Part shown: piece by piece, positions 4,782-59,080 of the stretch
How positions within the stretch are numbered: position 1 is the first letter of the stretch
Layout of the letters: every line of letters begins with the position of its first letter
IMG/VR virus record: IMGVR_UViG_3300045988_183796
Length of the DNA stretch: 64,000 nucleotides
From: a virus
Strand: one strand, 5' to 3'
The notes under the pieces: model-generated
The model's input: only the letters and a program-made list of their open reading frames with translations
Database searches by the model: none
Told to the model about the DNA's origin: nothing
Program-made: the position numbers and the translations under genes

Positions 4782-4786
4782 AGCCT

Positions 4787-12411: not shown

Positions 12412-13605
12412 ATGAGCACTTGCGTTTGTGTTCTCAGCAACAGTGGTGAACGCTTAATGCCTACCTTCCGTCTTGGCAAGGTACGCCGACTCTTGAAAGA
12501 CGGAAAAGCAAAAATCGTTAAGCACCATCCATTTACTATCCAGTTACTGTATGACAGTAAAACAAACACGCAGCCCATCGAAATCTGCGAGGATGTGGGC
12601 TACAACTACATCGGCATCAGTGTAAAAAGTCAATCTCACGAGTATGTATCTGCGCAGTATGATACATTACAGGATGAGAAAGCCTGCCACGACAGTTGTC
12701 GTAAGTTGCGCCGAACCCGCAGAAATAGACTGCGCTACCGTAAACCGCGCTTCGATAACCGCAAGCGCGGCGAAGGTTGGCTTGCTCCTTCTTTGAAGCA
12801 TAAGAAAGAACTCAATGTCAACGTTGTCAAGATGTATTGTGCAGTAATGCCCATTACTCATGCAACGGTTGAGGTTGGTTCTTTTGATACGATGCTTGTA
12901 AAAGCAATTCAGGAGGGAAAAGCCATTCCTGAGGGAGCAGACTACCAGAAAGGTCCCCGCTACAACTTGGCAACTTTGCGTGAGGCAGTGTTCTACCGTG
13001 ATAATTACACCTGCCAAGTTTGTGGACGCAAAATCGCGGATGGTGCCATTTTACATATGCACCACATGTTCTACTGGAAAGGAAGACACGGCTACCAGCT
13101 TGATGAGTTGGTTACAGCGTGTGAAAAATGCCACACGCCAGCAAATCATCAAAAAGGCGGCAAGCTCTTCGGTTTTGGCGAAGATAAAGAATTTGCCAAT
13201 CTTTCAGGTGCAGCGTTTATGAACGCTGTTTGCTGGCAGATAGTAGATGCACTGCACGCCACATACGGTAAGGAATTTGTGACCATCACTTATGGTGCGA
13301 TGACAAAGGAAAAGCGAATCATTCTTGGCATAGAGAAAACCCACAACAACGATGCGTATGCAATGGGAGATTATCATCCGGTACATCGTTGCGTGTTTAG
13401 GCATTACCAAAAACGACGCAGAAACAATCGTGTGCTGGAAAAATTCTACGATGCCACTTATATCGACACCCGCACCGGTAACAAAGCAAAAGGTAAAGAA
13501 CTATTTAACGGCAGAATTAGCCGTAATCACAAAAAGAATTCTGAAGACCTGCACAAGTACCGCAGCAAAAAGGTATCGAAGGGCCGTCGCTCTATAAGAA
13601 GGTAG
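12412..13605 (+). CDS. iscB: IscB (IS200/605 OMEGA RNA-guided HNH/RuvC nuclease)
   Basis: N-terminal PLMP-type motif (SGERLMPTFRLGKVRRLLKDGKAKIVKHHPFTIQL). RuvC-I EDVGYNYIGISV. Arg-rich bridge helix RKLRRTRRNRLRYRKPRFDNR. RuvC-II ATVEVGSFD. HNH YTCQVCGRK...HMHH...ACEKCH. RuvC-III THNNDAYAM. No TnpA nearby. Confidence 0.8.
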   Translation: MSTCVCVLSNSGERLMPTFRLGKVRRLLKDGKAKIVKHHPFTIQLLYDSKTNTQPIEICEDVGYNYIGISVKSQSHEYVSAQYDTLQDEKACHDSCRKLRRTRRNRLRYRKPRFDNRKRGEGWLAPSLKHKKELNVNVVKMYCAVMPITHATVEVGSFDTMLVKAIQEGKAIPEGADYQKGPRYNLATLREAVFYRDNYTCQVCGRKIADGAILHMHHMFYWKGRHGYQLDELVTACEKCHTPANHQKGGKLFGFGEDKEFANLSGAAFMNAVCWQIVDALHATYGKEFVTITYGAMTKEKRIILGIEKTHNNDAYAMGDYHPVHRCVFRHYQKRRRNNRVLEKFYDATYIDTRTGNKAKGKELFNGRISRNHKKNSEDLHKYRSKKVSKGRRSIRR

Positions 13606-19994: not shown

Positions 19995-21032
19995 TCAGGC
20001 GACAGATGGGGTATCCGTTGCTGCGTCAAAGAGCAGTGTGCCTTCGCCGTTATAGCTTGCGTCGTTCAGAGCGGCGTAGATGTAGTCAATGAAATAGCCA
20101 TCATCACCATTGTAGGTGGACTTCATGGAGACAAGATTGCCGTTGTCATCATAGGTGTTCTCGAAGGTCTGTTCGAAGTTGCCCATCGTAGCATCTTTGC
20201 CCTGCTGTTTGGTCATATTACCATGCTCATCGTATTCGGTCGAGACCTCACTGCCCTGACCAAAATAATAAGTGGTCTTGTTGTCGCTCACGCGCTTGTG
20301 ATACACAATGTCATCTGCACCATCTTCGCTGACAGTCTCGATATACAGACTATCGACGTCCATCGTATCAAAGTCACGAGTCGTGGTCTGAACGCCACTG
20401 TCATTCGTGATAACCTCCGTAACAGGCAGCTCGTGGGTGTCATCATAGGTGTAGGCGGTGGAGTAGTTCAGATACTGCTCACCATCACTTACGGTGTAGG
20501 ACTCTTCGCTCAGTTTCCGGCCGTTGTCATCATAGGTATACTGGCACACGATGGAAGGATTGCCATCCTCATCATCGCGTTCAATCAGGTCCCCGTGGTC
20601 GTTAAAAACCTGAGTGTACAGATAGTTTTGCTCGCCATTGAGGTAGGAGGTCATTTTCAGGACATTGCCGTTCTCGTCCAGCTCTTTGATGGTAACGGGG
20701 TCCATATCACTTGCTTTGTCGATTTCACGCATGAAAACCTCATTGCCGTTCTCATCGTACTTATGGACGGTAACAACGCCATCTTCATCATCAGCGCTGT
20801 AGTGCATCGTTTCGGTGCTCAACAGCAGGTCCTCTGCAGCAGCTTCGTCTACATCAGTGACCTCGGAAGGCACTTCCTCCGGCGTAGTCTCCTCAACCAC
20901 AGAACTTTCAGCCGGGGCGGTAGAAGCTGCTTCGGACGAGGAAGCGGCAGGCTTCTGGGTAGCACATCCGGCAAGCATCAGGGCTGTGGCGGTTGCCATG
21001 GCAGCGGCAGCGGTCAAGTTTTTGTTTCTCAT
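19995..21032 (-). CDS. YD-repeat lipoprotein
   Basis: Lipobox LMLAGCAT after a signal peptide. Repeated YDENGN/YTYDDNGR/TYDDNGNL YD-type repeats. ATG at 21032 with RBS GAAGGAGAACG. Confidence 0.65.
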   Translation of the reverse strand: MRNKNLTAAAAMATATALMLAGCATQKPAASSSEAASTAPAESSVVEETTPEEVPSEVTDVDEAAAEDLLLSTETMHYSADDEDGVVTVHKYDENGNEVFMREIDKASDMDPVTIKELDENGNVLKMTSYLNGEQNYLYTQVFNDHGDLIERDDEDGNPSIVCQYTYDDNGRKLSEESYTVSDGEQYLNYSTAYTYDDTHELPVTEVITNDSGVQTTTRDFDTMDVDSLYIETVSEDGADDIVYHKRVSDNKTTYYFGQGSEVSTEYDEHGNMTKQQGKDATMGNFEQTFENTYDDNGNLVSMKSTYNGDDGYFIDYIYAALNDASYNGEGTLLFDAATDTPSVA

Positions 21033-21359
21033 GTTCTTTCGTTCTCCTTCGTTTGGATAGTTTTTGCACAAATACTTCAATGTAGTATTTGTTGTACATC
21101 TCCTATTGTATCTGGCTCGCATATCCCGGCAAGCAAACAAGCATTACAAATTGGTAACCATTCGTGCAGCTACTGAAAAAATCGCGAAATTTCTTCGATG
21201 ACTTCCGGTTGTAGTGTATTTGATTGGACTTCCAAATTCTATTTTATCCGCACATATTGCAACTTACGGTTGTATTTGCTATACTATTAACAACCAATTA
21301 CAACCAGCAGAACATAAATAACAACCAACAGGTGTTGCAGCGGACGGAGGAGGCCAATC

Positions 21360-30879: not shown

Positions 30880-31198
30880 AGTCAACAACCCCGCCTAAAC
30901 CGGTTCGCCGGTTATAGACGGGGCTTGCGGGGCAACCTGTAAGCCCAGTTGATTAGCCTAAGCCCATTGCTCCGGCAGTGGGGAAAACTACGTTGTGTAC
31001 TAATAATATAGGCACCTTATCCATGCTCCACAAGTGGTGAGCTCTGCAGGCGTTTCGTTAAACATCTCCGAGGGGAGGAGAAGTGCGAGCGTCATGTCGA
31101 AAGGCTAAAACAGTGCATAACATTGGCGAAGTGGACCACAGGACGCAAGTCCTGACTTATAGTTTTATTACTATTTTACGAATGGAGAAACAAAAATT
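30880..31198 (+). ncRNA. Omega-RNA/HEARO-like scaffold copy 2 (no iscB), abutting the flotillin start codon
   Basis: Shares the 5' ~75-nt and 3' ~95-nt blocks with copy 1. The middle is divergent. Shows compensatory base changes (caggac-gcaa-gtcctg versus cagggc-gcaa-gccctg). Confidence 0.5.
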
Positions 31199-35546: not shown

Positions 35547-35665
35547 CTCAAAAGCGCGGTTTTGTCCGCGCAGCTGCTCCAAAAGACAGCCTCCACGCGG
35601 CGAGCAGCGGGCAACGGGAGACAGTCCCGGCAAATTGTCTTTGAGACGGAAGGAAGAAGTGCCCT

Positions 35666-39759: not shown

Positions 39760-39787
39760 TTGCCCATTTGTGCGAATTGCAGACAAT
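39760..39787 (+). promoter_or_regulatory. Regulon promoter
   Basis: TTGCCC-atttGTGCGAATtgca-GACAAT. Confidence 0.55.
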
Positions 39788-39870
39788 CAGAAATAAAGCG
39801 TAAAGCAAAGGAGCTGAGTACCATCTCAAAATTTGCAAGCAAAAAGTTGATTGAGCGAAATTGCAATATC

Positions 39871-40359
39871 ATGAAAGACTACGGCAACGGCTATTCCATT
39901 GAGGAGCTTGCCGCAAAATACAGGTTGAGCGTCCGTACATGCTATCGAGCGTTAGACGACGCGAAACAGGAGGCCAGAATTCAGCTGGCACAGGTTGAGG
40001 ATGCCAGAAAAGCTGAAATCCTTGCGGCATACAAGAACAGTGTCCCTCTCAAGGAAATGATTGCGAAATTCAACGTGACAGAAGGATATTGCGGCATGGT
40101 TGCCAACGATGCGGGCCTGACTGAAAACCGCAGAAACGAGCGCATCAAAATTAGACAAAGACCGCGCAACGAGAATATCTTTCGAGAATACGAGAGTGGC
40201 GTGCCGGTGCAGAAACTATCCGAAAAGTATCAGCTCTCGGTTCCTGGTATTTACAAGGTTATCCAGCGAGTGAGAAGGCAAAAGGAGGCGATGGAGTTTT
40301 GCAATGGATTGTTAAGCAAACCAAATCGAAAGGATATGAGTTCACCTTCGATATCGTGA
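39871..40359 (+). CDS. HTH-domain protein (repeated resolvase/sigma-region-4-like HTH units)
   Basis: Repeated motifs YSIEELAAKYRLSVRTCYRAL, PLKEMIAKFNVTEGYC and VQKLSEKYQLSVPGIYKVI. The start is uncertain; a non-ATG start further upstream near RBS AAAGGAG is possible. Confidence 0.45.
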   Translation: MKDYGNGYSIEELAAKYRLSVRTCYRALDDAKQEARIQLAQVEDARKAEILAAYKNSVPLKEMIAKFNVTEGYCGMVANDAGLTENRRNERIKIRQRPRNENIFREYESGVPVQKLSEKYQLSVPGIYKVIQRVRRQKEAMEFCNGLLSKPNRKDMSSPSIS

Positions 40360-46673: not shown

Positions 46674-47216
46674 ATGCGTACAAACAAGACGGCAAGCCAT
46701 ATTTACTATGAGCTTGACCACGATGTGCAGGAATATGCGAAACGGCTTTTAGCCAAAAAAATTCTGCACGCGGCACAGCAGAATAATGCCGCTCCGTTAT
46801 CTGATAAAACGGCAAAGAAGACTGCTGAGACGGCAGTATTTCTGACCGAACGCCTCGCGCTTTTGTATGAGCTGAATTCTGGATTCCGAGGCATCCGATT
46901 CAGCACTTTCGGAGAACAACCTGCTGTTTACACTACCATGGTCCAGCACAATGCTCCGCTGTACGATGAGCTGATGCTTGGACGGGCCTATAACCTTGCC
47001 AACTACCTTACTGCTGATAATGAGGATATCAAAGAATCTGCTTTGATGAAGCACAAGGTTTTGGCAGCAATTTATAGTGCCGCTGCATACATGAAAGGGC
47101 AGACTCCGGAGCAGGGAAAAATCTCGATTCAGAACCAGCTGTTTGTGTCTACGGCTGTTGAGCTGTTTGATGGTCTTTTGAGTGCAGCGGAAGAGAAAAA
47201 AGAACGGCAGCGATAA
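46674..47216 (+). CDS. Hypothetical protein
   Basis: Starts 5 nt after the helicase stop. Confidence 0.5.
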   Translation: MRTNKTASHIYYELDHDVQEYAKRLLAKKILHAAQQNNAAPLSDKTAKKTAETAVFLTERLALLYELNSGFRGIRFSTFGEQPAVYTTMVQHNAPLYDELMLGRAYNLANYLTADNEDIKESALMKHKVLAAIYSAAAYMKGQTPEQGKISIQNQLFVSTAVELFDGLLSAAEEKKERQR

Positions 47217-47251
47217 AAGTGTCGCCTGAGTTAGAAATTAGGAGAATTTGC

Positions 47252-47704
47252 ATGATTCGAGTTAAGAAAGAGAACCACCGTAGTTGGTTCATGAGCAACT
47301 ATTATCCTTGCGAATTTGTGATGAATGGGATTCGCTACAAGAACGCTGAAGCAGCGTTTCAGAGTCACAAGGTCCCACTGGAAGAGCGCAGACAGTTTGC
47401 GGACATGCCACCGGCTTCTGCCAAGCGCTTTGGCCGCAATGTAGCTATCCCCGCAAACTGGGGTGAGGCTCGGGACGACGTGATGCGCCGCGTGGTGATG
47501 GCCAAGTTCGAGCAGAATGAGGACCTCAAACAGCGCCTCCTCGAAACGGGTACGCAGCCTATTGAGGAAGACACGACCAGCTGGCATGACAATTACTGGG
47601 GCAACTGCCACTGCCCGAAATGCCAGAACATCCCAGGTCAAAACCGGCTTGGGATTATTCTGATGGAAACGAGGGACAAGCTAAAAAAACAAACGAGTAA
47701 ATAA
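47252..47704 (+). CDS. NADAR (YbiA/DUF1768) family ADP-ribosyl N-glycosidase
   Basis: SNYYPCEF, YKNAEAAFQSHK, WHDNYWGNC and GQNRLGIILMETR match NADAR signatures. Confidence 0.75.
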   Translation: MIRVKKENHRSWFMSNYYPCEFVMNGIRYKNAEAAFQSHKVPLEERRQFADMPPASAKRFGRNVAIPANWGEARDDVMRRVVMAKFEQNEDLKQRLLETGTQPIEEDTTSWHDNYWGNCHCPKCQNIPGQNRLGIILMETRDKLKKQTSK

Positions 47705-48265: not shown

Positions 48266-50152
48266 TCACTGAACAACTTCGCCAAGGTCATTTGCGTATT
48301 TCGGGTCACACATCATGAAATAGTTGACGGGGCCGTACTCCAGACCGAGCTCCTGCGCGTATGCCTTGATGACTTCCAGAACGTCCTCTTTCTTGAGATT
48401 ATACTTGGAATGCAGACGGGCAAACTCTTTGTCAGAGACAGAAACGCAAGAGCAATTTTCTGCATCGGTTTCTTTGCTGCCCAGCATCCCGTCAAAGATG
48501 TCCTGCCCTGCACAGAGAATCGTCTCATTGTTCATCGCATAGGCGATAACGGAAGCCTTACAGTCAAAGTCGCTGTTTTCCACAAGGAAATCCTCAGGGC
48601 GGCCGTGACGTTCAACAACGTTTTCATAGATGTCCCGGAGTTCGATAGGAGCAGAAGGAGCGGTCAGAGCTGCTTTATGAAGGCGCATGAATTCCACAAA
48701 CTTTTCATTCGAGAGGGTATCGGTATAAAAGCCGATGCCGGAAACGCGAACCTTCACTTCGCTGGCAAAGTAATCGTCAATTTTGGAGACGATTTTCTGC
48801 TGAACCCGCTTGTACGCTTCCTGAACATTGGAAGCCGTGTAAAATACCGGGAACTTCATGATGTCGATTCCCTCCGGCAGACTCGCGTCATAGGCCGCAT
48901 CAATGCCGCCTCGCAGCGCCGGAACCGCGTCATGAAGCTCTTTCACAGAAGAAATGTATCCGGTAATGTACAGCTCATCGTTTTTGCTGTAATGCCCGAT
49001 AAGTCCCACATAGAGGGTCTGCATCAGCATCCGCTTGAAGCTGAACCAACATAGACGAATGGGTAGAATGACATTAGCAGCCGTACCTTCCGCACGATAG
49101 GTGCCGGGGGCAGAGACCTTTTCCAGCAGAATCTGGTCGTTCTTGTCACCGTATTTTTCCTTGAAAAGAGCTTGAAGAATTTCAGTGGACGAAAGAGGAG
49201 TGGACATTGGAATCGTTTCATTCAGAAAAGAGAGGAATGCATCCACATTGTCTTTCTGCCATGCGTCATTAGACATGCTTGCACGCTGCATAGAGAGCTT
49301 GTCTTTCCTATCATCGGGCAGGGGCTCATACCCACAGGCGATACGAAGTTCGTTCTCCGTGACAGCATCCGTTGCACTTGCAATTTTTTTGATGGTGTTC
49401 TCGGTCGGCTGAGCTTTTGCGTTGCCATTCACGAGGCTGCTGATATACCCACGAGTCAGCCCCGCTTGAAACGCAAACTTACCCTGTGTGCGGGTTCCGA
49501 TGGCTTTTTTGACCAGCGATGCCAGCCTTTGAAAGTCGGGCTCTTTGGGAAAGGTGGCCTCCGCATCCTTATTGCTGTTCTTTTCAAGTACCGACTTGTC
49601 CCAACCGGTGACAAGAGAATACCCAATATCCTTCAAGGATTGATAGGCAACCCCGTTCTGGTCAAGAGCCGGGGAGTATGTACCGCTGTTATCTTCCAGC
49701 TGCTCTACTGCCTCACGCACCATCCTTGCTTCGTTCATCAGGATGACGTCCGGGGCTTCAAGCCGGGCAAGACTCTTGTACCGATTATTGAGGCGCTCGA
49801 CTCGTGCGGCCAATGCAGTGATGTTGGCAACTTGGTCTTCCGTTGCATGGGCAGAGATATCTGCACCAAGTTCAAAATGGTTTAGTGCAGGAATATCCAC
49901 GCCTTTGCTCTTGGCGAATTCCACAATGGCTTCCGCGCCATAGAAACGCTTCTCATGGGCTGCGACAACTTTCGTTATCGTGTCGGCCGAGTTGTCCAGC
50001 TCAAGCACTTCACCTTTTCCGGCATCCTCGACATAACACCTGGTGTTGGTGAGAAAGCCTTTCAAAAAATCAGCATCCACATCCAGCTTCTTAGCGATGC
50101 CGGGCAGCTGCTTATAGAAAATCACGCGCGTGGCGAGGTTAACAGAAATCAT
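48266..50152 (-). CDS. Large hypothetical protein with an internal XRE-like HTH
   Basis: GLTRGYISSLVNG resembles a Cro/C1 HTH. 628 aa. Confidence 0.5.
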   Translation of the reverse strand: MISVNLATRVIFYKQLPGIAKKLDVDADFLKGFLTNTRCYVEDAGKGEVLELDNSADTITKVVAAHEKRFYGAEAIVEFAKSKGVDIPALNHFELGADISAHATEDQVANITALAARVERLNNRYKSLARLEAPDVILMNEARMVREAVEQLEDNSGTYSPALDQNGVAYQSLKDIGYSLVTGWDKSVLEKNSNKDAEATFPKEPDFQRLASLVKKAIGTRTQGKFAFQAGLTRGYISSLVNGNAKAQPTENTIKKIASATDAVTENELRIACGYEPLPDDRKDKLSMQRASMSNDAWQKDNVDAFLSFLNETIPMSTPLSSTEILQALFKEKYGDKNDQILLEKVSAPGTYRAEGTAANVILPIRLCWFSFKRMLMQTLYVGLIGHYSKNDELYITGYISSVKELHDAVPALRGGIDAAYDASLPEGIDIMKFPVFYTASNVQEAYKRVQQKIVSKIDDYFASEVKVRVSGIGFYTDTLSNEKFVEFMRLHKAALTAPSAPIELRDIYENVVERHGRPEDFLVENSDFDCKASVIAYAMNNETILCAGQDIFDGMLGSKETDAENCSCVSVSDKEFARLHSKYNLKKEDVLEVIKAYAQELGLEYGPVNYFMMCDPKYANDLGEVVQ

Positions 50153-50389
50153 GGTGTACTCCTTTCAAATATGTCATTAGCTGTACAATGCTGTCATCTT
50201 CTGTAATTATAATAGCACATCCCGCACCAAAAAGCAAGCATGAATTTACAAAAAATGACAAGAAAATACACAAGATGACATATTTGGGCAAAGCAGTTGA
50301 TTTCCGAGTCTTTGCTACCCCGTGATGGAACATGCCCTGTGCGTCTTGTCTATGCCACAGTTTTGCCACGATTTTGCCATGATTTTGCC

Positions 50390-50418
50390 TTGTGCATCCG
50401 TGCGAATTGGATATGATA
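50390..50418 (+). promoter_or_regulatory. Regulon promoter preceded by three GATTTTGCC direct repeats
   Basis: TTGTGC-atccGTGCGAATtgga-TATGAT. Repeats at about 50360-50390. Confidence 0.5.
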
Positions 50419-50441
50419 GGAAATATAAGATAAATAAGTGT

Positions 50442-50537: not shown

Positions 50538-51632
50538 ATGGCAAAGAATGAGAATCTGCACAAGGCAAAGGATGCCAAGAACGACGAGTTCTATACGCTG
50601 TTGAGCAGTATATCCGAAGAACTCAGACACTACAAGCAGCATTTCGCTGCAAAAATTGTATTCTGCAACTGCGATGACCCGACATGGTCTGCTTTCTGGC
50701 GGTATTTCCACCTGAACTTTGCAGAACTTGGCTTAAAGAAGCTGATTTCCACGCACTATGACCGTACAGAACCCACCTACAAGATGGAGTATGAGGGCGG
50801 AGACGACAATGATGTGGAGGTCGGTGTGAAGACCCCGCTGGAAGGCAATGGTGATTTCCGCAGTCAAGAATGCCTTAATTTGCTGGATGAGTGCGATATC
50901 GTGGTAACCAACCCGCCCTTCAGCCTTTTTAGAGAATTCGTCGGGACGTTGATGGAACACGATAAGAAGTTCATTATTTGGGGCAACAACAATGCCATTA
51001 CATACAAAGAGTTCTTTCCACTTTTGAAAGAAAACAAGGTGTGGCTTGGTTATACAGCGAATAAGACGTGTACATTTAGAGTTGCCGAAGGCTATCGCTT
51101 CGACGAAAAACTTACTGCACAATTCAATGACGGGCACAAGTATGGGAAAGTGCCCGCCATTTCTATTTTTACCAACCTCGACATCCAGAAGCGCCACGAA
51201 AAGCTGATTCTTTGGCAGAGATACTATGACGATAACGGGAATCCGTTGCCGGATGCGGAGGAGAGATACCCCCACTACGATAATTACGATGCCATCAATG
51301 TAGACAGGGTTGCTGATATTCCGGTGGATTATCGAGACGTAATGGGTGTGCCGATTACGTTCTTGGATAAGTATAATCCGAAAGAATTTGAAATTTTAGG
51401 CTACACGGGCGGTTTGGGGTGGAATAACCAAAACAATATAAAAACCACCAAAGAGTATTTGGAATGCAAACAGCACAACCCAGACGGGAGTATTACAAGT
51501 GGGGGCAAGGTAAATACTGGCGCGGCATTGTGCTTTAGTGAAATTCCTGCACAAAGATACTATTCGGCATCAAATTGCGACGGATATCTACTCAGAACAT
51601 ACGGACGAATTCTTATTTGCAAGACGAAATGA
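50538..51632 (+). CDS. N6-adenine DNA methyltransferase (orphan; NPPF motif IV)
   Basis: VVTNPPFSLF catalytic motif. N-terminal DEFYT element, as in EcoRI-methylase-like phage/plasmid methyltransferases. Confidence 0.75.
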   Translation: MAKNENLHKAKDAKNDEFYTLLSSISEELRHYKQHFAAKIVFCNCDDPTWSAFWRYFHLNFAELGLKKLISTHYDRTEPTYKMEYEGGDDNDVEVGVKTPLEGNGDFRSQECLNLLDECDIVVTNPPFSLFREFVGTLMEHDKKFIIWGNNNAITYKEFFPLLKENKVWLGYTANKTCTFRVAEGYRFDEKLTAQFNDGHKYGKVPAISIFTNLDIQKRHEKLILWQRYYDDNGNPLPDAEERYPHYDNYDAINVDRVADIPVDYRDVMGVPITFLDKYNPKEFEILGYTGGLGWNNQNNIKTTKEYLECKQHNPDGSITSGGKVNTGAALCFSEIPAQRYYSASNCDGYLLRTYGRILICKTK

Positions 51633-51646
51633 ATGGTGGAATTGGA

Positions 51647-52456
51647 ATGGATATAAAATGGGAAATCGCCTATTATTTAATTGAAGCGAAAAAAGCTGTC
51701 GATTCTTTATGGTATATATCAAACCATGTCGGCGAATTATATGATGTCAGGCAATTATGCAACGATAGACGAAGTCAGTATTACATTAACACCTGTGCCG
51801 TCTTGGATAAAACTGTGTGTAATGGTAAAGGAAAGAAAAAGGAATTAACGCAAAGCGACAATGTTATTGCACACATCTATTACGAAAGAGATAAGCACTA
51901 TGCTCACAAAGATAGTGATTATAGACAAAACTATCCGTGGACAAATTTGGAGCAAGAAGCGTTTGCATTACAAGAGGAATTGCGCCACATTTCAAAAAAA
52001 TGTAAGGATTATCTTCCACAAGTGCTTACACTCGACTTTGTATGTTATGACAGCGTCCAATATCGATATATCAATAAAATTGGCAAAAGTGATGAAGAAA
52101 AAATAAAGAATGAAAAGTATCCTTTTTACAATAAGCCGTTTATAGTAAATGGAAAGACAATTAAAAAGAAACCTATATACGATATTGAAACCATAAAAAG
52201 CATCCCTACTGATAAGCATAATGAATATTGCGTTATTATAGAAAGTGGCTTGACATTTGAAGAAGATTTGCAAAATAGGCAAGATGCCTTAATTAAATTA
52301 AACGTCCTATGTGGTGGAAGTCTTTGGTATGCAAGAAACGAAACCATGTGGAATGAATGTCTCAGGTTACGAGAATTGGGAATATTTGATGCTTTTGGGA
52401 AAATAAATCGTGAAAGAATTAAAGAGGAGATAAAGAAAGGAAATAAAATCCTATGA
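51647..52456 (+). CDS. Hypothetical protein encoded on an AT-rich insert
   Basis: GC drops visibly (about 32-35%) between about 51650 and 52450. Start is 51629 or 51647. Confidence 0.45.
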   Translation: MDIKWEIAYYLIEAKKAVDSLWYISNHVGELYDVRQLCNDRRSQYYINTCAVLDKTVCNGKGKKKELTQSDNVIAHIYYERDKHYAHKDSDYRQNYPWTNLEQEAFALQEELRHISKKCKDYLPQVLTLDFVCYDSVQYRYINKIGKSDEEKIKNEKYPFYNKPFIVNGKTIKKKPIYDIETIKSIPTDKHNEYCVIIESGLTFEEDLQNRQDALIKLNVLCGGSLWYARNETMWNECLRLRELGIFDAFGKINRERIKEEIKKGNKIL

Positions 52457-53589
52457 AAATTACAGAAACGAAAATCAAGGTATTCGACCTTGTCGAGAAT
52501 TACAAGGACAACGGTGATGGCGGTGTCTTTGGCTACAATGACCGTCTTACGATTCGCCCGTCCTTCCAGCGTGAATTTATATATGGGGAGAAGCAGCGTA
52601 CCGCTGTTATTGATTCCGTAATGAACGGATTCCCTTTGAACGTTATGTACTGGTCCAAGACAGGAGATGACACCTACGAGGTTCTTGATGGACAACAACG
52701 TACTATCTCTATTGCTCAGTACATCAACAAGGATTTTCCTGTCAAAGTCAACGGCAATGATAAGTTCTTCCAGAACCTGACCAACGAAGAAAAGCAGGCA
52801 ATTCTGGACTACGAGCTGACGGTTTATGTCTGCGAAGGCACCGAGGCTGAGAAGCTTGAATGGTTTAAGCGCATCAATATCGCTGGTGAGGTTTTGACTC
52901 CGCAGGAACTTCTGAACGCTACATACACAGGACCGTGGCTGGCCGATGCAAAGAACTACTTCTCAAAGCGCAACTGCGTGGCTGTTAAGATGGCAGATGG
53001 CTATTTGAAAGGCAACCCGATTCGACAGGAACTGCTGGAAAAGGCACTGATTTGGATTGCGGACCGGGATGGTCTGGAATCCGGGCAGATGTACATGGCG
53101 ATTCACCAGCATGACGAGGACGCCAATGACCTCTGGCTTTACTTCCAGTCGGTAATCAACTGGGCCAAAATGCTGTTCCCGTCTAAGCGGAAGGGGATTA
53201 CGGATGCACAGGCATGGGGACTGCTCTACAACAAGTACCATTCGAAGCAGTACAACAGCAACGCTCTGGAAGCAGACATCAAGAAGCTCGTGATGGACGA
53301 TGATGTGACGAAGAAAGCAGGCATCGTTCCGTACATCCTGTCTGACCGTACATGGCGTGACGAAAAGCATCTGTCTCTGCGTGCGTTTACTGAGTCTCAG
53401 AAGCTCCGTGCCTATGAGCGGCAGGGACATAAGTGTCCGCTGTGCGTTGCGAACGGTATCAACACCGAGTATGCCTATGAGGATATGGAAGGTGACCACA
53501 TCATTCCTTGGAGCAAGGGTGGGCATACCACGGATGACAATTTGCAGATGCTGTGCAAGAAGTGTAATTCGGCAAAGTCGGATATGTGA
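52453..53589 (+). CDS. DUF262 (ParB/Srx-like, DGQQR) plus C-terminal HNH endonuclease: type IV restriction / defence-like nuclease
   Basis: VLDGQQRT motif. C-terminal HKCPLC...GDHIIPWSKGG...NLQMLCKKCN HNH motif. Confidence 0.75.
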   Translation: MKITETKIKVFDLVENYKDNGDGGVFGYNDRLTIRPSFQREFIYGEKQRTAVIDSVMNGFPLNVMYWSKTGDDTYEVLDGQQRTISIAQYINKDFPVKVNGNDKFFQNLTNEEKQAILDYELTVYVCEGTEAEKLEWFKRINIAGEVLTPQELLNATYTGPWLADAKNYFSKRNCVAVKMADGYLKGNPIRQELLEKALIWIADRDGLESGQMYMAIHQHDEDANDLWLYFQSVINWAKMLFPSKRKGITDAQAWGLLYNKYHSKQYNSNALEADIKKLVMDDDVTKKAGIVPYILSDRTWRDEKHLSLRAFTESQKLRAYERQGHKCPLCVANGINTEYAYEDMEGDHIIPWSKGGHTTDDNLQMLCKKCNSAKSDM

Positions 53590-53604: not shown

Positions 53605-54063
53605 ATGAAAAAATATTGCTATTTCATGTTCGGTATGTTCACCGGCACAGACGGAAACAAATACAACATCTGCATCCCGTCGCCGTTTGTCCGAGACTCA
53701 AAAGCTGAAGCTATGAAGGATGAAAATTTTGCTTACCGCTTTTTGACAATCGACTCGGCCGGACCTATGCTGGTCGCTTTTGCAAACGAGCACTTCAAAC
53801 CCATGAACAACGGCAAAATGCAGTTGAAATGCTGGGTGGATAAGGATGTTGCCGGGAACTATACCTTTGAAGAATTCAAGAAAAATGGCGGGTATATTCG
53901 ACAACTGAAGCCGAGTAGCAAGGGAAAATATGTAACTGATGAGTCGGACTTTATTGATGCTGATAAGGCATTTGCCGATGTATTCCCCAATGTGGAGCAA
54001 GGGAAGCTCTACTATGTGGATGATGAGGCTTATTTCATCGGGAATGTGACGAAAATCAAATAA
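53605..54063 (+). CDS. Hypothetical protein
   Basis: RBS GGTGGGAGCATATC. Confidence 0.5.
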   Translation: MKKYCYFMFGMFTGTDGNKYNICIPSPFVRDSKAEAMKDENFAYRFLTIDSAGPMLVAFANEHFKPMNNGKMQLKCWVDKDVAGNYTFEEFKKNGGYIRQLKPSSKGKYVTDESDFIDADKAFADVFPNVEQGKLYYVDDEAYFIGNVTKIK

Positions 54064-54085: not shown

Positions 54086-54442
54086 ATGGTAGTTAAAGGA
54101 GAAGCTTGTTTTGTTTCTATGCAGTTGAGCATGAAATCTACTGACACCACGAGCAAAGGAATTATCATGCCAGATTTTCTTTGCTCTAGTGCAGATTTTT
54201 CGCTTCCTTACAATCCAGAGATTATCGACAAATTTGTCTATGACGACAAAATGATTTCTCACATGGTCCACGAATTGTACAGTCTCGTGAAGTGCCTACG
54301 CCCTGATAAATTGGATGACAAAGAAAAATGCCTGGTACTGGATATTGACGTGGATGATGAATTCTATGATTTCTACGATGTATATGTAACTATGAGCAAA
54401 GATACTTGTACCTACAGGGTCGAAGAAGATGATGACTACTGA
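54086..54442 (+). CDS. Acidic small protein, family A paralog 1
   Basis: VHELYSLVKCLRPDKLDDKEKCLVLDIDVDD aligns with paralogs at 54707 and 56697. Start is 54086 or 54122. Confidence 0.5.
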   Translation: MVVKGEACFVSMQLSMKSTDTTSKGIIMPDFLCSSADFSLPYNPEIIDKFVYDDKMISHMVHELYSLVKCLRPDKLDDKEKCLVLDIDVDDEFYDFYDVYVTMSKDTCTYRVEEDDDY

Positions 54443-54630
54443 TATACTGTGCTCTCTCATCGAACGATGTAACGTTCTGAACAGCGCTCATGGCGCTGCT
54501 TGGGCTGACAGGCACCGGAGCTTATCACTAAAACCTTGAAAAAAGAAGTGGAACGCAACAATATAGAAAATTATTAAAAAATATTTTTTTGAGAAATCCG
54601 ACCTAGCCGGATTCCACGCTACTGGACCGA

Positions 54631-54658
54631 TTGACCGTCCTTGCGAACTGCGTAGAAT
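54631..54658 (+). promoter_or_regulatory. Regulon promoter (variant TGCGAAC)
   Basis: TTGACC-gtccTTGCGAACtgcg-TAGAAT. Confidence 0.5.
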
Positions 54659-54706
54659 TAAAGGTGTAAGAAGAAACCCGTAACACACACAAAGGGGAAT
54701 ACCAAC

Positions 54707-55027
54707 ATGTATACTTGCACCTTAAAATTCGAAGCTACCGCGTTCCGCGAGGATGATGACAACGAGCTCGAAAGCATCTCTGCTTCCATCAGCGTCCCCG
54801 TAAAAGGTGATGATGAAACGGTTGAAGAAACGCTGAGTAATGAGAAGCTGATTGTCCGCACTGTTGTAGCGTTGTACGAAATCGTTAGCTACCTGCGCCC
54901 CAACTGGCTGGACAACGAGGCTACCAGCCTGACGCTGGATATTTCCATCGATGGCAGTGAAGTTCAGTCGCGTGGCGGCCTTGTTACCATGAAACCGGAA
55001 GGCTTTATCTTTAACCTGGATGATTAA
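54707..55027 (+). CDS. Acidic small protein, family A paralog 2
   Basis: RBS AAAGGGGAATACCAAC. About 40% identity to 56697-57017. Confidence 0.55.
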   Translation: MYTCTLKFEATAFREDDDNELESISASISVPVKGDDETVEETLSNEKLIVRTVVALYEIVSYLRPNWLDNEATSLTLDISIDGSEVQSRGGLVTMKPEGFIFNLDD

Positions 55028-55040
55028 GTAAAGTTGATTG

Positions 55041-55078
55041 GGAGTCTTACCTGCAAAAGCGGGCAAGACTCCTTTTTT
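55041..55078 (+). terminator. Intrinsic terminator
   Basis: ggagtcttacctgcaaaagcgggcaagactcc followed by a T-run. Confidence 0.65.
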
Positions 55079-55094
55079 ATAAGCAGGTGAACAT

Positions 55095-55982
55095 ATGAAC
55101 ATTGCGTTTTATGACGGTATACTTTTGCAAGTGAACTTGCATAACAGCAAAGCCACCGTTCTTTCGAAACACAAAATTGGAACCGACACCATAGATTTCT
55201 ACAACTACTTCACAAAACACCGCCCGTCTCCTGAAGAGCCGCTTTTGGAGTTGTCGAACTTTCCGGCAAATGAAGCCATCAAAATCATTTCCGGGCAGCC
55301 CCTTGTCAATCAATTCTTTTCGGATTACATCGATACTAGCCAGGAAAACAATCAGGCCACTGCAAAAGAAGCTTTGGCCTATACTCACAATCTTGTCCAG
55401 AATGTTTTTTCTGATATAGATGCTGCTTTGGCGATGCATTCTGGTGTTAATGCTAAGGGATTCGAAGGTAACCAGATGCTTTTCGGAGCTGACCAGTTCA
55501 CGATGGTCTTTGCTCTGTTGGGCAATCGAATTGTTCAGGTCTACACGGTAAAAGACCTGCGTGAATATCTCCTGCTTGATTTATACTACGCCAATTTTGT
55601 GCCGGATTTCTCAAAAAAGATTGCTATTTGCCCTTGCTGCGGAAAGACTTTCCGTTTGAGTCAGCGGAACAAGGTATACTGCAGCAAGGCTTGCAAAGAT
55701 AAAAGCATTCGGGCAAACAACAAGAAAGACCCATACTATTCAAAATACCGATACCTGCAGCAATACAACAACCGGCAACTCAACAAGCAGCGCAGGCGTA
55801 TGGCAGATTCATCGCTACAAGCGCAGAAGCTGCGAGATGCCTATACCACCTGGAACAAATGGGCACGCTCTGAATACAAGCAGGTGAGTGGCATCTCAGA
55901 CCACACGCAGCGGGTGAATGTTGAAGAGTTCGATGGGCGCTTGAAAGAGCGGTGGAAGGCTCTAACATGGGACCTGAATTAA
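55095..55982 (+). CDS. Hypothetical protein with a C-terminal zinc ribbon and a basic tail
   Basis: CPCCGKTF...YCSKACKDK motif. RBS AAGCAGGTGAAC. Confidence 0.55.
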   Translation: MNIAFYDGILLQVNLHNSKATVLSKHKIGTDTIDFYNYFTKHRPSPEEPLLELSNFPANEAIKIISGQPLVNQFFSDYIDTSQENNQATAKEALAYTHNLVQNVFSDIDAALAMHSGVNAKGFEGNQMLFGADQFTMVFALLGNRIVQVYTVKDLREYLLLDLYYANFVPDFSKKIAICPCCGKTFRLSQRNKVYCSKACKDKSIRANNKKDPYYSKYRYLQQYNNRQLNKQRRRMADSSLQAQKLRDAYTTWNKWARSEYKQVSGISDHTQRVNVEEFDGRLKERWKALTWDLN

Positions 55983-56003
55983 AGTGCTCAGCATGAAGAA
56001 CGA

Positions 56004-56040
56004 CCTACCTGCCATAAACAGGTGGGGCTTTTTCTTTTTG
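56004..56040 (+). terminator. Intrinsic terminator
   Basis: acctgccataaacaggtgggg followed by cttttt. Confidence 0.55.
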
Positions 56041-56105
56041 TGTTGACAGCAGGCTAAAGAGGAGAAAACCGCCCCAATGGAATGCTCATTCCAGAACGTC
56101 AGAAA

Positions 56106-56133
56106 TTGACTCATTATGCGATTTGCCTAGAAT
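56106..56133 (+). promoter_or_regulatory. Regulon promoter (variant ATGCGATT)
   Basis: TTGACT-cattATGCGATTtgcc-TAGAAT. Confidence 0.45.
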
Positions 56134-56158
56134 GAAAAGAAATGAGGCAGAAAGTGAG

Positions 56159-56368
56159 ATGCGTAATATGTTTGCAATGTGCCGAGACGGTTCAGCCGTT
56201 CATGTCTTCGGAAATACCATCAGCGTCAGTGGCCGGGGCATGAGCGAAACCTACGTCCTCTGCGGGAACATGCTGACCGGTCCGCACGGGTTCCGGTCGA
56301 TGAACTGCAGAAGTATCGATGAGGCATTTTGCCTGGTGTGCGGCGTACATGGCGGTAAGAGCTGGTGA
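56159..56368 (+). CDS. Small protein, family B paralog 4
   Basis: ...YVLCGNMLTGPHGFRSMNCRSIDEAFCLVCGVHGG matches family B. Start is uncertain (56159, 56168 or 56177). Confidence 0.4.
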   Translation: MRNMFAMCRDGSAVHVFGNTISVSGRGMSETYVLCGNMLTGPHGFRSMNCRSIDEAFCLVCGVHGGKSW

Positions 56369-56384
56369 AGCAAAATTCTTGATT

Positions 56385-56460
56385 TGTGTTGTTTTCGGCC
56401 CCTCTAAAGGTCTTGACTTGTGAGGCTTTTGACCTTCCAAAAGTCTTGATTTGTGTTGAA
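56385..56460. repeat. Three direct repeats (G)TCTTGAYTTGTG upstream of a promoter
   Basis: ttcttgatttgtgtt, ggtcttgacttgtgagg and agtcttgatttgtgttg. Confidence 0.5.
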
Positions 56461-56482
56461 CGCCAAGGCAAATACAAGAAGT

Positions 56483-56510
56483 TTGACACCTTATGCGACT
56501 TGCATACAAT
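56483..56510 (+). promoter_or_regulatory. Regulon promoter with a consensus -35
   Basis: TTGACA-ccttATGCGACTtgca-TACAAT. Confidence 0.55.
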
Positions 56511-56696
56511 AATACTTATGCAGTACACCAGAGCAAACAAACGGATATATACGCTTGCACAGTATAGCAAGTACGGCAAAATAAAAGCTCGAAACAGATT
56601 GAAAAGTATAAGACCGTATAATAGAGTCAAGCAGGTTGAAAGGTAAAAGATGGTTTCTAGGACTGCATAAATATAATCTAAAAGGAGATATTCCCA

Positions 56697-57017
56697 ATGA
56701 ACACCAGTATCTTGAAACTTGAAGCCAGCGTGATTCGCCCCAAAGATTTTGACGAACTCGACGGTCTTGCTGCTTCCATCAGCTTCCCCGTCGAATACGA
56801 TGATGAGGCAATCGGTGAGGCTCTGGCCGACCAGGACCTGATGGCCTATGTCGTCGGTGAGCTGCATGACCTCGTTGTCCGTATGCGCCCCGAATGGCAG
56901 GATAACGAAGATACCAGCCTGACTATCAAGGCATTCCTGGACGAAGCCGAGTGCCAGACGCTCAAGGGCCTTGTCGCAATGAAAGAGGACAGCTACACCT
57001 TCGTCATTGAGGGCTAA
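56697..57017 (+). CDS. Acidic small protein, family A paralog 3
   Basis: RBS AAAAGGAGATATTCCCA. Aligns with 54707-55027. Confidence 0.55.
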   Translation: MNTSILKLEASVIRPKDFDELDGLAASISFPVEYDDEAIGEALADQDLMAYVVGELHDLVVRMRPEWQDNEDTSLTIKAFLDEAECQTLKGLVAMKEDSYTFVIEG

Positions 57018-57350
57018 TAGCTAAAAGAACAAGTGAAAACCCTGCTCGCAGTAAAATGCGGGCGGGGTCTTTTTTTGTTTGACAAGGTGTGCGAGATGGC
57101 TATGATGATTATTGTATCAAAGATACCACTTACCTTCATTTTTAACATTCCGCTTTTGCAAGGACAGCCTCATTCCGAGGTTGTCCTTTTTCTTTTGCGT
57201 AACTCTCCACGGAAACACTTGTCCCCGTGTTTAACATAAATCCGCAAGCTGCTCTAAATTTTGGAACAGCTTAGTCAATTCAAATCGTACGAAAGTACGA
57301 AAACACTACGCAAACATTCTGCGTAGACTGTAAAAAAAGGAGTAATAATT

Positions 57351-57848
57351 ATGAAGTTCGAAAATCTTTACATCCGTGCCACCCGTCATGGCAGCCAGGA
57401 ACCCACCGAAATCAACCTTGCGGATGCCCTGAAGCTTCTCGGCATCCTTGACGCAGCCAACATAGCTCACTTTGACCTTGTGGTCAAGGACGAGAACGGC
57501 TGCGAAATCGCCGCCCAGGTCGATGGCGAAGGCGTCCTTTCGGACGGAATCAACATCGAAGGCGTGAACGAAGCTGGTGAACCTACCGGTTTTGCCCACG
57601 TCGCTCTCCCCAGTGAGGATTGCCCTCACATTGTCACCGAAATCCTGTGAGGCGACGGTGACACCGAAGACCTTGACCATCCGGTTCTCGTGCGCGTCCC
57701 TGACTGCGTGCGTGCCGAAGGGGACAAGAGTCTCCGCAAGGTGTACTTCGACAAGGAAGTTGCGAGTGCAACTGGCTTCAACACGGAGGAAGACCAGTCC
57801 AAGCTCAACGCATCCACCGTGGATGAGTACGCCCTCATGAAGAAGTGA
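57351..57848 (+). pseudogene. Acidic protein ORF interrupted by an in-frame TGA at 57648-57650 (recoding/readthrough candidate or nonsense pseudogene)
   Basis: RBS AAAAAAGGAGTAATAATT before ATG 57351. After the TGA the same frame stays open for 65 more codons (GDGDTEDLDHPVLVRVPDCVRAEGDKSLRKVYFDKEVASATGFNTEEDQSKLNASTVDEYALMKK), with similar acidic composition and codon usage. Confidence 0.45.
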
Positions 57849-58194: not shown

Positions 58195-58602
58195 ATGAAA
58201 AAATTTATTGAAACTGCTTTGGCATTATGCTGCCTGGCTATGCCTTTGGCTGGCTGTGAGGACGCAATCAGCACTGTGACAAGTACTACGATGTCTGAAC
58301 TCGAAGATATCCCGGGTCAGATATTGTCTACACCAGAAAGTGCTGAGACAGTACCGGAATACAATTACATTCATTTTCGCTACGACAACATTTGGACCGT
58401 ATCCGCTCTCGTAAGCTACGAAATCGTGGACAACGGGCAAAACATCAAATTTGAAATCAGTGATAGCCGTTACCGAGACAAGGTTTTCTATACCAGCATG
58501 TCGAATGTAGAGCTCGTATACCGAGACAATAACGTTGATTATGGCACAGACTATGCTATTTATCCAGGGAATGCTTCGAAATTTGGAAAGGGGAGTAAGT
58601 GA
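58195..58602 (+). CDS. Lipoprotein
   Basis: Signal peptide plus lipobox LAMPLAGCE. RBS AACGGAGGAAATTACC. Confidence 0.55.
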   Translation: MKKFIETALALCCLAMPLAGCEDAISTVTSTTMSELEDIPGQILSTPESAETVPEYNYIHFRYDNIWTVSALVSYEIVDNGQNIKFEISDSRYRDKVFYTSMSNVELVYRDNNVDYGTDYAIYPGNASKFGKGSK

Positions 58603-58603
58603 G

Positions 58604-59080
58604 ATGAGCGTGAAATTCATTGACGGCGATATCCTTTCCAAACGTTCTGAAGACGAACTGACCTACATCTGCCAGCAGGTAAATTGCCGTGGCGTGATGG
58701 GAGCCGGGCTCGCTCTGCAAATCCGAAACAAGTGGCCGGTCGTGTATCGGCGTTATCTGGGGCTCTGCTACGGCAGCGACGGAAACAAGCTCGGAATGTA
58801 TCAGGAGGTTTTGGTTGGACCGAAGCTGTATATTGTGAATTTGTTCGGTCAGGATGGCTATGGTCGGAGCGAAAGACAGACGAATTACGCTGCACTCGCA
58901 GCTGCGCTGTTCTCGTTTTTTAAGGACTGTGCCCAAAAGAATCGGGACGCAACCATCCGGCTGCCATATGGTTTAGGCTGCGGCCTTGCTGGGGGTGACT
59001 GGAACATGGTTCTCACCATCATCAGCGATGCGGCTAAAGCCTCAAACCTGAATGTCGAGATTTGGAAACTTCAGAAATAA
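58604..59080 (+). CDS. Macro-domain protein (ADP-ribose binding/hydrolase)
   Basis: ICQQVNCRGVMGAGLALQI, NLFGQDGYG and LPYGLGCGLAGGDW are macro-domain signatures. RBS AAAGGGGAGTAAGTGAG. Confidence 0.75.
   Translation: MSVKFIDGDILSKRSEDELTYICQQVNCRGVMGAGLALQIRNKWPVVYRRYLGLCYGSDGNKLGMYQEVLVGPKLYIVNLFGQDGYGRSERQTNYAALAAALFSFFKDCAQKNRDATIRLPYGLGCGLAGGDWNMVLTIISDAAKASNLNVEIWKLQK

Follow-up and report, generated by a model that had tools for sequence, protein, structure and literature searches.

Three related genes for small acidic proteins

Three small acidic proteins are encoded between positions 54086 and 57017 of a 64,000-nt sequence from IMG/VR (IMGVR_UViG_3300045988_183796; hereafter the window). 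The ORFs, termed A1 (54086..54442, + strand; 118 aa), A2 (54707..55027, + strand; 106 aa) and A3 (56697..57017, + strand; 106 aa), have exactly the coordinates, strand and peptides quoted in a preliminary description of the locus. A1, recognized as an ORF with BLASTP matches to the other two, is the most divergent copy, and A2 and A3 are of the cluster 6 and cluster 4 types, respectively. The homology that had been proposed for the three was borne out by BLASTP, in which A2 and A3 were 43% identical over 102 aa (E = 7e-29), A1 and A2 34% identical over 71 aa (E = 6e-11) and A1 and A3 27% identical over 84 aa (E = 2e-10). It also survived shuffling, with Smith-Waterman z-scores of 33.9 (A2/A3), 13.5 (A1/A2) and 13.5 (A1/A3) and observed scores that were reached by none of 1000 shuffles in each comparison. 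A family HMM matched A1 with E = 6e-44. A hidden fourth paralogue was rejected, as the family HMM found three members in the window at E ≤ 10 and no more; orf57351 and w36290 were likewise rejected as members (hhalign probability 0.2%).

Each of the three genes is preceded by a Shine-Dalgarno sequence, that of A1 being GGAGGG, 7 nt upstream. Inside orthologue clusters, dN/dS was 0.08-0.16, indicative of purifying selection, and nowhere along the alignments did it exceed 0.41; there is thus no arms-race signature at the within-cluster scale. A1, A2 and A3 are real, constrained protein-coding genes. Their products are acidic, as had been described, with pI values of 4.23 (A1), 4.08 (A2) and 4.05 (A3), net charges of -14, -14 and -16, respectively, and 22-26 Asp and Glu residues per protein. 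Net charge was -12 to -17 in seven of the nine family subclusters, and clusters 8 and 2 were weakly acidic (-4 and -8, respectively). Judging from their sequences, A1-A3 possess neither a signal peptide nor a hydrophobic segment.

Predicted fold and database searches

The structure of A2 was modeled with AF2 (pLDDT 94.3, pTM 0.85) and consisted of secondary-structure elements in the order beta-beta-alpha-alpha-beta-beta-beta. The same order was obtained for A1 (pLDDT 84.9), and on the basis of these models we are confident that A1 and A2 share one compact alpha/beta fold. No significant structural match for the AlphaFold model was found in PDB or BFVD, and a profile search against PDB sequences gave nothing below E = 0.98. 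Scans of A1, A2 and A3 against Pfam, PHROG, NCBIfam and PADLOC returned no match, with none in Pfam-A even at E ≤ 0.1, and source records read 'hypothetical protein'; the family is indeed unannotated, as first supposed.

The acidity of the family invites comparison with proteins that mimic DNA. ArdA (Tn916 Orf18 type) and Ocr (phage T7) are, like family A, small acidic cytosolic proteins of mobile elements with their own promoter, and by sequence counts A1-A3 (106-118 aa, 22-26 Asp and Glu) fall within a published screen for DNA mimics, which selects proteins of <200 aa with ≥10 Asp/Glu (PMC3902945). However, no likeness in sequence or fold to known anti-defence proteins was found. A1-A3 did not match the ArdA model of Pfam, ArdA was likewise absent from the NCBIfam and PHROGs results, and the predicted fold lacks the elongated, three-domain form by which ArdA resembles bent B-DNA. 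Ocr gave no Pfam or PDB sequence match with A1-A3, and its fold is all-alpha, whereas five beta-strands form most of the family model.

Distribution and carrier element

Among 1.84 billion representative proteins, a profile search returned 56 matches, all of them in one lineage of human-gut elements. Family members were absent from 185,579 GTDB species genomes, and PLSDB and INPHARED contained neither a tblastn match for A2 nor a DNA match to the 50-60 kb part of the window. Exact copies of window proteins occurred on 320-340 contigs, with A2 on 340. The sole NCBI record found (MCF7631478.1; 'hypothetical protein', Oscillospiraceae bacterium SCCA1) falls into A2's 90%-identity cluster.

The window contains genes for a VirB4-like protein and a T4SS coupling protein (T4CP), in agreement with carriage of the family on a conjugative element. 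The closest VirB4 relatives sit on plasmids of Subdoligranulum and Vescimonas, and GTDB species genomes held no close relative. Pfam searches detected no relaxase domain among 46 window ORFs and one helicase of the related locus L001, and no oriT was found in the window; the location in a plasmid entry (leading) region that the preliminary description had assumed is therefore conjectural. Phage origin, considered because relatives are deposited in IMG/VR, was discarded as the main interpretation, since no structural PHROG was matched by any of 10 large unexplained ORFs, whereas T4CP and VirB4 genes are present. Taken as a whole, the family is lineage-restricted, its carriers being large conjugative elements of human-gut Oscillospiraceae.

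A promoter shared by the accessory operons

Nearly all genes in the accessory half of the window lie on one strand. A position weight matrix (PWM) search located 17 promoter sites on the + strand between 23.6 and 61.2 kb, with scores of 22-44 bits against a shuffle maximum of 11.8, and none in the part of the window that holds the T4SS. The promoters are of the sigma-70 type and have a conserved block, GTGCGAAtTG, in the spacer, which is common to at least 17 of them in the accessory half. This shared element, together with the gene order, places the family genes within a cluster of co-regulated accessory operons.

It had further been noted that two of the three copies possess a regulon promoter and a terminator of their own, and these are A2 and A3. 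The A2 promoter (54631..54658, + strand) reads TTGACC-N16-TAGAAT with the spacer block TTGCGAAC and scored 32.6 bits against the same shuffle maximum; on other contigs the element is kept ~66 nt upstream of cluster-6 genes. A2 is followed by an intrinsic terminator (55040..55079, + strand) with a 14-bp stem (55040-55073) and six T residues (dG -22.4 kcal/mol, z -4.2, 0/200 shuffles as good). The A3 promoter (56483..56510, + strand) reads TTGACA-N16-TACAAT with the spacer block ATGCGAC, scored 34.1 bits and leaves a 186-nt leader, for which unusual RNA structure was not supported (z -1.2) and no Rfam family was found. A terminator scan and RNA folding placed the A3 terminator at 57039..57075 (+ strand; hairpin 57039-57068, dG -29.5, z -7.4). 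A1 has no regulon promoter of its own and no clear terminator, and is the last gene of a tightly packed, co-directional string. Cluster-5 family genes elsewhere use a different promoter.

A 6.3-kb insertion and the origin of the three copies

A1 and A2 arrived on a 6.3-kb insertion that also brought an intact type II restriction-modification (R-M) system. BLASTN colinearity with relatives stops at 50367-50408 and restarts at 56680. The left junction lies inside a displaced regulon promoter (50378..50425, + strand; 40.3 bits by PWM) of a type that directly drives the A3-type gene in close relatives and here faces the R-M cassette. The cassette (50538..53589) comprises an EcoRI-type methylase identified by Pfam (50538..51632, + strand; PADLOC MTase_II, E = 6e-113), a 275-aa ORF in the middle (51629..52456, + strand) and a restriction enzyme with Pfam GmrSD_N and HNH domains (52453..53589, + strand), which matched PADLOC REase_II PDLC03418 over its full length (E = 2e-131). 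R-M cassette gene calls were also made in two other loci (L121, L122). Since the insertion holds an intact type II R-M system with a full-length cognate restriction enzyme, a reading of the methylase at 50538-51632 as an orphan was discarded. The restriction enzyme is followed in the same direction by orf53605 (53605..54063, + strand; 152 aa) and, directly after it, A1. A homologue of orf53605 with 65% identity occurs in locus L006; the family member there, which is the most divergent, is the second gene downstream of it.

The A3 locus is colinear with loci L116, L083 and L109, and A3 is the resident backbone copy in this plasmid sublineage; in other sublineages the backbone position is filled by the A2 type (cluster 6). 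In many related loci one family copy is a backbone gene at the same position and stands alone as a unit, promoter and terminator included; 99 of 118 loci have a single copy, at this fixed position. The number of copies per locus ranged from one to three, in tandem arrays of diverged alleles, with up to three alleles of 27-65% identity coexisting in one element. Mosaic alleles were also seen (P0033, P0035, P0040), as were a recombinant A2/A3 hybrid (L097) and differences in cassettes between close relatives. The three genes had been described as paralogues. They are a real homologous family, but import of cassettes between related plasmids, which would have brought separate alleles together, accounts for the three copies better than duplication in situ.

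A possible role in establishment or anti-defence

As a tentative best guess, the family may be a transiently expressed inhibitor that serves establishment or anti-defence. The GTGCGAAtTG block would be the operator of a plasmid-encoded repressor, in which case the regulon would fire upon entry into a repressor-free cell and then be switched off. The family protein would inhibit, by stoichiometric binding, a host enzyme able to attack or block incoming DNA, and different alleles would match different variants of the target. Allele-specific targets would account for the mosaic alleles, and also for the fact that related plasmids accumulate two or even three divergent copies, every one with a promoter and a terminator to itself. 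DNA charge mimicry is one conceivable mode of binding; the weak acidity of clusters 8 and 2 argues against it as a universal property of the family. As the family gene is single and fixed in its backbone position in most loci, a role internal to the plasmid would fit equally.

The neighborhood includes genes of the counter-defence or establishment type, namely NADAR, Macro-like, PRA-PH/MazG-like and SNF2 helicase genes, and a UmuC-type polymerase gene is present elsewhere in the window. The intact R-M system is defence cargo, so the neighborhood is mixed rather than purely counter-defence. By analogy, the accessory operon cluster resembles plasmid establishment and anti-defence islands (PMC8708921; PMC11541004). 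In pLS20-family plasmids, establishment regulons and anti-defence islands consist of EGeRS-controlled operons (Val-Calvo et al. 2021, PMC8708921). As there, a conjugative plasmid of Gram-positive bacteria bears a cluster of small operons with one regulatory sequence before each, gene content is variable and shuffled between related plasmids, and many of the small proteins are of unknown function; the 17 sites with the spacer block and the gene content that varies between related plasmids follow the same organization. However, the regulatory sequence is unrelated to EGeRS, no known ard gene serves as an anchor, and the host belongs to the Oscillospiraceae and not to Bacillus. The anti-defence islands of leading regions (Samuel et al. 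2024, PMC11541004) likewise consist of clustered, co-oriented genes on conjugative elements and include methylases, umuC-like genes and many uncharacterized small families, although the methylase described here is one component of a complete R-M system.

A more specific version of the proposal is possible, if on the doubtful side: that these proteins are new inhibitors, directed against an immune system of gut Clostridia (perhaps a restriction enzyme or another DNA-targeting system) and built on a fold for which no relative is detectable among solved structures or predicted viral ones, subject to zygotic induction through a plasmid-wide promoter/operator regulon and diversified by exchange of promoter-gene-terminator cassettes, with conserved promoter and gene as recombination anchors. 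Family members are candidates for a new counter-defence or regulatory mechanism, being constrained, apparently strongly expressed and without a recognizable relative, and the element is common in human-gut metagenomes, where its exact proteins occur on >300 assembled contigs. Oscillospiraceae hosts are hard to manipulate genetically, and each family member is one gene of ~320 bp that is easy to test. As for pLS20, the shared promoter/operator (at least 17 units) could flag establishment genes on plasmids of uncultured Clostridia. If the protein is instead an internal regulator, its interest would be local.

Neighboring genes and alternative roles

The backbone copy lies between a divergent gene for a 628-aa HTH protein and genes for a lipoprotein, a Macro-like protein, RlaP and a helicase. 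The HTH_3 (Xre-type) protein (48266..50152, - strand; Pfam HTH_3, E = 1.8e-6), at whose gene the composition skew reverses and which in the ancestral layout is encoded divergently from the family gene, is a candidate regulator. In 23 close relatives its gene directly adjoins the A3-type gene, which is the first divergent gene at a distance of 291-302 nt, a classic layout for a regulator and its target. Family members might accordingly be anti-repressors, which would bind the DNA-binding surface of a plasmid regulator (the 628-aa HTH_3 protein or the protein that recognizes GTGCGAAtTG) and control the regulon switch; the small size and acidity of the protein are compatible with such a role, and the regulon-wide type of promoter before its gene would give feedback. 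We regard this as rather unlikely, as in other sublineages the adjacency is not kept (2.7-3.6 kb, with two to four genes between), as up to three alleles of 27-65% identity in one element would be odd for a specific regulator-partner pair, and as cluster-5 genes are transcribed from a different promoter.

The proteins could also, though improbably, be cis-protective, in the manner of an immunity protein or antitoxin, and neutralize a potentially harmful enzyme of the element itself. During establishment this might be the GmrSD_N-HNH restriction enzyme; a module related to ADP-ribosylation, beside the NADAR or Macro genes, is another candidate. A1 does come after the R-M gene string, and it is alone in this: A2, A3 and the majority of homologues are framed by a promoter and a terminator of their own, and their upstream neighbors differ among loci. 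The layout of polymorphic-toxin immunity or antitoxin genes, immediately downstream of a toxin gene and co-transcribed with it, was not observed.

Lipoprotein homologues were found in 79 loci at a median offset of +603 from the family gene, and Macro-like homologues in 69 loci at +991 (118 loci plus the window). In the window, the 135-aa lipoprotein (58195..58602, + strand; lipobox LAGC) is followed by the 158-aa Macro-like protein (58604..59080, + strand), whose Pfam Macro match was weak (E = 0.007). The lipoprotein gene is the most conserved neighbor and is kept beside the most divergent family members (L006, L009). Secretion chaperones are typically small and acidic, as the family is. A function in transfer or maintenance, as a chaperone or adaptor of T4SS substrates or as partner of a lipoprotein that might act in exclusion, would suit these features and the fixed backbone position, but is very unlikely, given that the family and lipoprotein genes are separate transcription units, that the family protein lacks an export signal and the lipoprotein is exported, that no fold match to known chaperones was found, and that the T4SS genes lie >45 kb from the family genes and are devoid of the regulon promoter.

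Synteny around RlaP relatives in PLSDB was uninformative. In 29 loci, cluster-6 family genes are followed by a gene that in the window encodes a 295-aa zinc-ribbon-like protein (cluster c10; 55095..55982, + strand) with partial matches to PHROGs annotated as HNH endonuclease. The MBL-fold gene downstream of the helicase, which carried a faint Apyc1 flag, was considered as an anti-defence gene and set aside; its N-terminus is a lipoprotein signal sequence.

Three Related Genes and Their Family

The three genes lie on the + strand exactly where the preliminary description had placed them, A1 at 54086-54442 (118 aa), A2 at 54707-55027 (106 aa), and A3 at 56697-57017 (106 aa), and each possesses a Shine-Dalgarno sequence. 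The full-length alignment proposed for their products was confirmed, with BLASTP identities of 43% for A2 and A3 (E = 7e-29), 34% for A1 and A2 (E = 6e-11), and 27% for A1 and A3 (E = 2e-10). None of 1000 shuffles per pair equalled the observed local alignment scores (z = 33.9 for A2/A3 and 13.5 for each of the other pairs), so the kinship withstood the shuffling that had been named as its refutation test. The proteins were also found to be acidic, as claimed, with pI values of 4.05-4.23 and net charges of -14 to -16. No fourth copy was detected in the window with a family HMM, even at E ≤ 10.

Models from Pfam-A, PHROG, NCBIfam, and PADLOC gave no match to A1, A2, or A3. A word-indexed search of 5.8 billion protein clusters returned 49 relatives, nearly all of 106 aa and all from metagenome sources, none of which had a name other than "hypothetical protein"; the impression that the family is unannotated was therefore correct. 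When 1.84 billion representatives were searched exhaustively with an HMMER profile, only 56 matches resulted, most of them fragments or frame-shifted chimeras. The exact A1, A2, and A3 proteins were encoded on 326, 340, and 320 contigs, respectively (longest contig, 296 kb), and the 90%-identity cluster of A2 included MCF7631478.1, an NCBI hypothetical protein of Oscillospiraceae bacterium SCCA1. The family was absent from 185,579 GTDB species genomes and from PLSDB and INPHARED, and was found on at least 80 contigs from human-gut metagenomes and on 31 IMG/VR contigs of 40-390 kb. It is new in being unannotated and in that no sequence relatives could be detected beyond a single plasmid lineage.

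The 143 gene copies (76 distinct proteins) formed nine clusters at ~65% identity. Pairwise dN/dS within clusters was 0.08-0.16, with all 15-codon windows at or below 0.41, which shows the family members to be real genes under purifying selection. In one contig that is otherwise 99.9% identical (L121), a single-base indel breaks the counterpart of A3 (L121 6132-6924); this copy may be a natural pseudogene, or the indel an error of sequencing. Four ORFs of other assemblies (P0050, P0060, P0071, and P0094) are chimeric, an N-terminal piece continuing in frame into a C-terminal family part; judged by eye, these pieces resemble C5 or N4/N6 DNA methylase motifs. The chimeras probably mark junctions left by a deletion or by assembly, and they suggest that family genes often have a methylase gene immediately upstream.

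The structure of A2 was predicted with confidence using AlphaFold2 with a 20-sequence alignment (pLDDT 94.3, pTM 0.85) and consisted of beta(2-15), beta(21-34), alpha(36-43), alpha(46-63), beta(72-81), beta(84-96), and beta(99-104); the elements of the A1 model (pLDDT 84.9) followed one another in the same order. Judged from the sequence, the way residues alternate along the strands suggests a sheet with a hydrophobic face under the two helices and a polar face of Ser, Thr, and acidic residues. The most conserved positions were L56, L59, R64-P65-x-W67-L68-D69, S27, and M95. Foldseek identified no structural relative in the PDB (best E = 0.02, TM < 0.4) or BFVD (best E = 0.0066), and the predicted fold thus appears to be new as well with respect to these two databases.

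Carrier Element

The window encodes a T4SS coupling protein (40-1611) and a VirB4-like ATPase (4778-7447), the latter's closest PLSDB relatives, at 38% identity, belonging to Subdoligranulum variabile and Vescimonas fastidiosa plasmids. None of ten large unexplained ORFs scanned hit a structurally annotated PHROG family, and Pfam revealed no relaxase domain among 46 window ORFs and one helicase from a related locus. An HDV-like ribozyme of the Faecalibacterium prausnitzii type between two ORFs at 35573-35642 (+; Rfam RF02682, 60 bits) hints at an Oscillospirales host. In our reading, the DNA belongs to a large conjugative plasmid, or a plasmid-like element, from gut Oscillospiraceae. Related IMG/VR contigs (L090-L120; 40-390 kb) are filed as viral, yet the window carries the coupling protein and VirB4 genes, and the ten ORFs scanned showed no match to phage structural families. 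These contigs may be misclassified or represent a phage-plasmid.

Other features of the window included a HEARO/omega-RNA at 30881-31141 (+; Rfam RF02033, 91 bits), an IscB-like RRXRR+HNH ORF at 12412-13605 (+) that is not adjacent to it but 17 kb away, and an ORF with an RHS-repeat match at 19995-21137 (-; E = 1e-9) that overlaps a 317-aa ORF on the + strand, either of which may be the real gene.

Shared Regulon and Gene Neighborhood

Two of the three genes had been described as having their own regulon promoter and terminator, and this holds for A2 and A3. Upstream of A2 is TTGACC-N16-TAGAAT (54631-54658), and the gene is followed by a strong hairpin with a T-run (55040-55079; dG -22.4, z -4.2). 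The A3 promoter, TTGACA-N16-TACAAT (56483-56510), lies 186 nt upstream of its gene, and the terminator is at 57039-57068 (dG -29.5, z -7.4). A1 has neither; it sits 22 nt behind orf53605, closing a tightly packed gene string. Both promoters contain a conserved spacer block (consensus TTG-N6-7-GTGCGAAtTGc-TAcAAT). A position weight matrix trained on 11 copies located 17 sites on the + strand of the window between 23.6 and 61.2 kb (six of them outside the training set) and one on the - strand; the first 23 kb, which contain the transfer genes, had no site. Site scores were 22-44 bits, against a shuffled-sequence maximum of 11.8. In other contigs, family genes belonging to clusters 6, 4, 3, 8, and 7 had the promoter ~66 nt upstream; cluster 5 genes have a different one. 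Given the shared spacer block, the 17 scored sites, and the conservation in other contigs, the regulon promoter is real.

The regulon thus has at least 17 sigma-70-type promoters (23656-61253, +; for example at 39748, 40959, 44093, 50378, 58025, 58131, and 61206), with the GTGCGAAtTG block just upstream of the -10. Some copies of the block form a dyad, TATGCG-N3-CGCATA. Candidate regulators are a 628-aa HTH_3 protein (48266-50152, -) and a Mor/HTH protein (39760-40359).

When all + strand ORFs of 118 loci were clustered, a recurrent backbone emerged, consisting, in this order, of a SNF2 helicase, the neighbor-gene group c2, NADAR, the 628-aa HTH_3 gene (-), the family gene, a 135-aa lipoprotein, a Macro-like gene, PRA-PH and c12 (each in some loci), RlaP, a UvrD-like helicase, and a Mor-like regulator. 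Lipoprotein homologs were found in 79 loci (median offset from the family gene, +603) and Macro-like homologs in 69 (median offset, +991). The family gene thus recurs at one backbone position across many related loci and is not sporadic cargo. Within ±6 kb, 99 loci had one copy, 13 had two, and six had three; in the triple arrays (L001-L005), members of three different clusters follow one another in direct tandem, each copy with a separate intergenic region.

Origin of the Three Copies

In 23 loci, the HTH protein is 97-99% identical to that of the window, and its gene is divergent from an A3-type gene, with only 291-302 nt separating the two. BLASTN comparison with three related loci (L116, L083, and L109) showed 96% colinearity up to W50367-50408 (W, window position) followed by a jump to W56680, which indicates a 6.3-kb insertion in the window relative to these loci. 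Its left junction is inside a regulon promoter, just after CCGTGCGAATT, and its right junction precedes the A3 start codon by 17 nt. Within the insertion are an EcoRI-type methylase (PADLOC, E = 6e-113), a 275-aa ORF, a GmrSD_N+HNH protein, orf53605, A1, A2, a 295-aa zinc-ribbon-like protein (c10), and an 81-aa ORF. The GmrSD_N+HNH protein is a full-length type II restriction enzyme (PADLOC PDLC03418, E = 2e-131); with the methylase and the 275-aa ORF it forms an intact type II R-M cassette (50538-53589) carried as cargo, which rules out an orphan methylase.

The A2 type occupies the backbone position in another sublineage, where it is followed by c10 in 29 loci. Mosaic alleles (P0033, P0035, and P0040) switch between A2 and A3 types at the conserved ASIS-P and LRP-WLDNEDTSLT motifs, and one locus (L097) has an A2/A3 hybrid with the DNA between deleted. 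Taken with the insertion, these observations indicate that the "paralogs" are best regarded as divergent alleles that recombination among related plasmids has stacked, with the shared promoter and the family gene itself serving as homology anchors.

Another insertion relative to close relatives (W57081-57971) contains a second small acidic ORF (57351-57650, +; 99 aa, pI 4.3), which showed no kinship with the family by hhalign.

Possible Function

The family proteins are small, acidic, and cytosolic, and are confined to one group of related gut contigs. Their genes are strongly signalled single-gene units inside a plasmid-wide regulon that leaves out the transfer genes, have counter-defense-type neighbors (NADAR, Macro, and MazG-like), and occur as diverged alleles that are stacked and shuffled. 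Since a pattern of this kind has been described both for establishment/anti-defense genes on plasmids of Gram-positive bacteria (PMC8708921) and for islands in leading regions (PMC11541004), we tentatively favor the view that the protein may be a stoichiometric inhibitor of a host defense enzyme, expressed on entry. DNA mimicry, which the preliminary description had also raised, is possible: in size and acidic content, A1, A2, and A3 fall within the limits of a simple screen for DNA mimics (PMC3902945). No more than a possibility is claimed because the charge density is about half that of Ocr (PMC3439906) and cluster 8 proteins are nearly neutral.

Each of three rival roles appears less probable than host-defense inhibition. 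The family protein is unlikely to be a cis-protective inhibitor of one of the element's own enzymes, a role that the place of A1 behind the R-M genes would fit. Equally unlikely is an anti-repressor that targets the divergently encoded HTH protein. Least likely is an accessory factor for transfer or maintenance. The family fits an already recognized category, that of small acidic orphans encoded in co-regulated accessory islands of plasmids, and provides a clean, abundant, and easily testable candidate.

Among the neighbors, c2 is an unannotated protein of 180-220 aa, with no Pfam or PADLOC match, that is repeatedly encoded directly upstream of an ADP-ribose-processing gene (window 46674-47704; L001 3947-5033 and 12158-13241). 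Within one element its partner was NADAR once and the Macro-like gene once; the latter is also present without c2. The order is reminiscent of DarT/DarG-type pairs.
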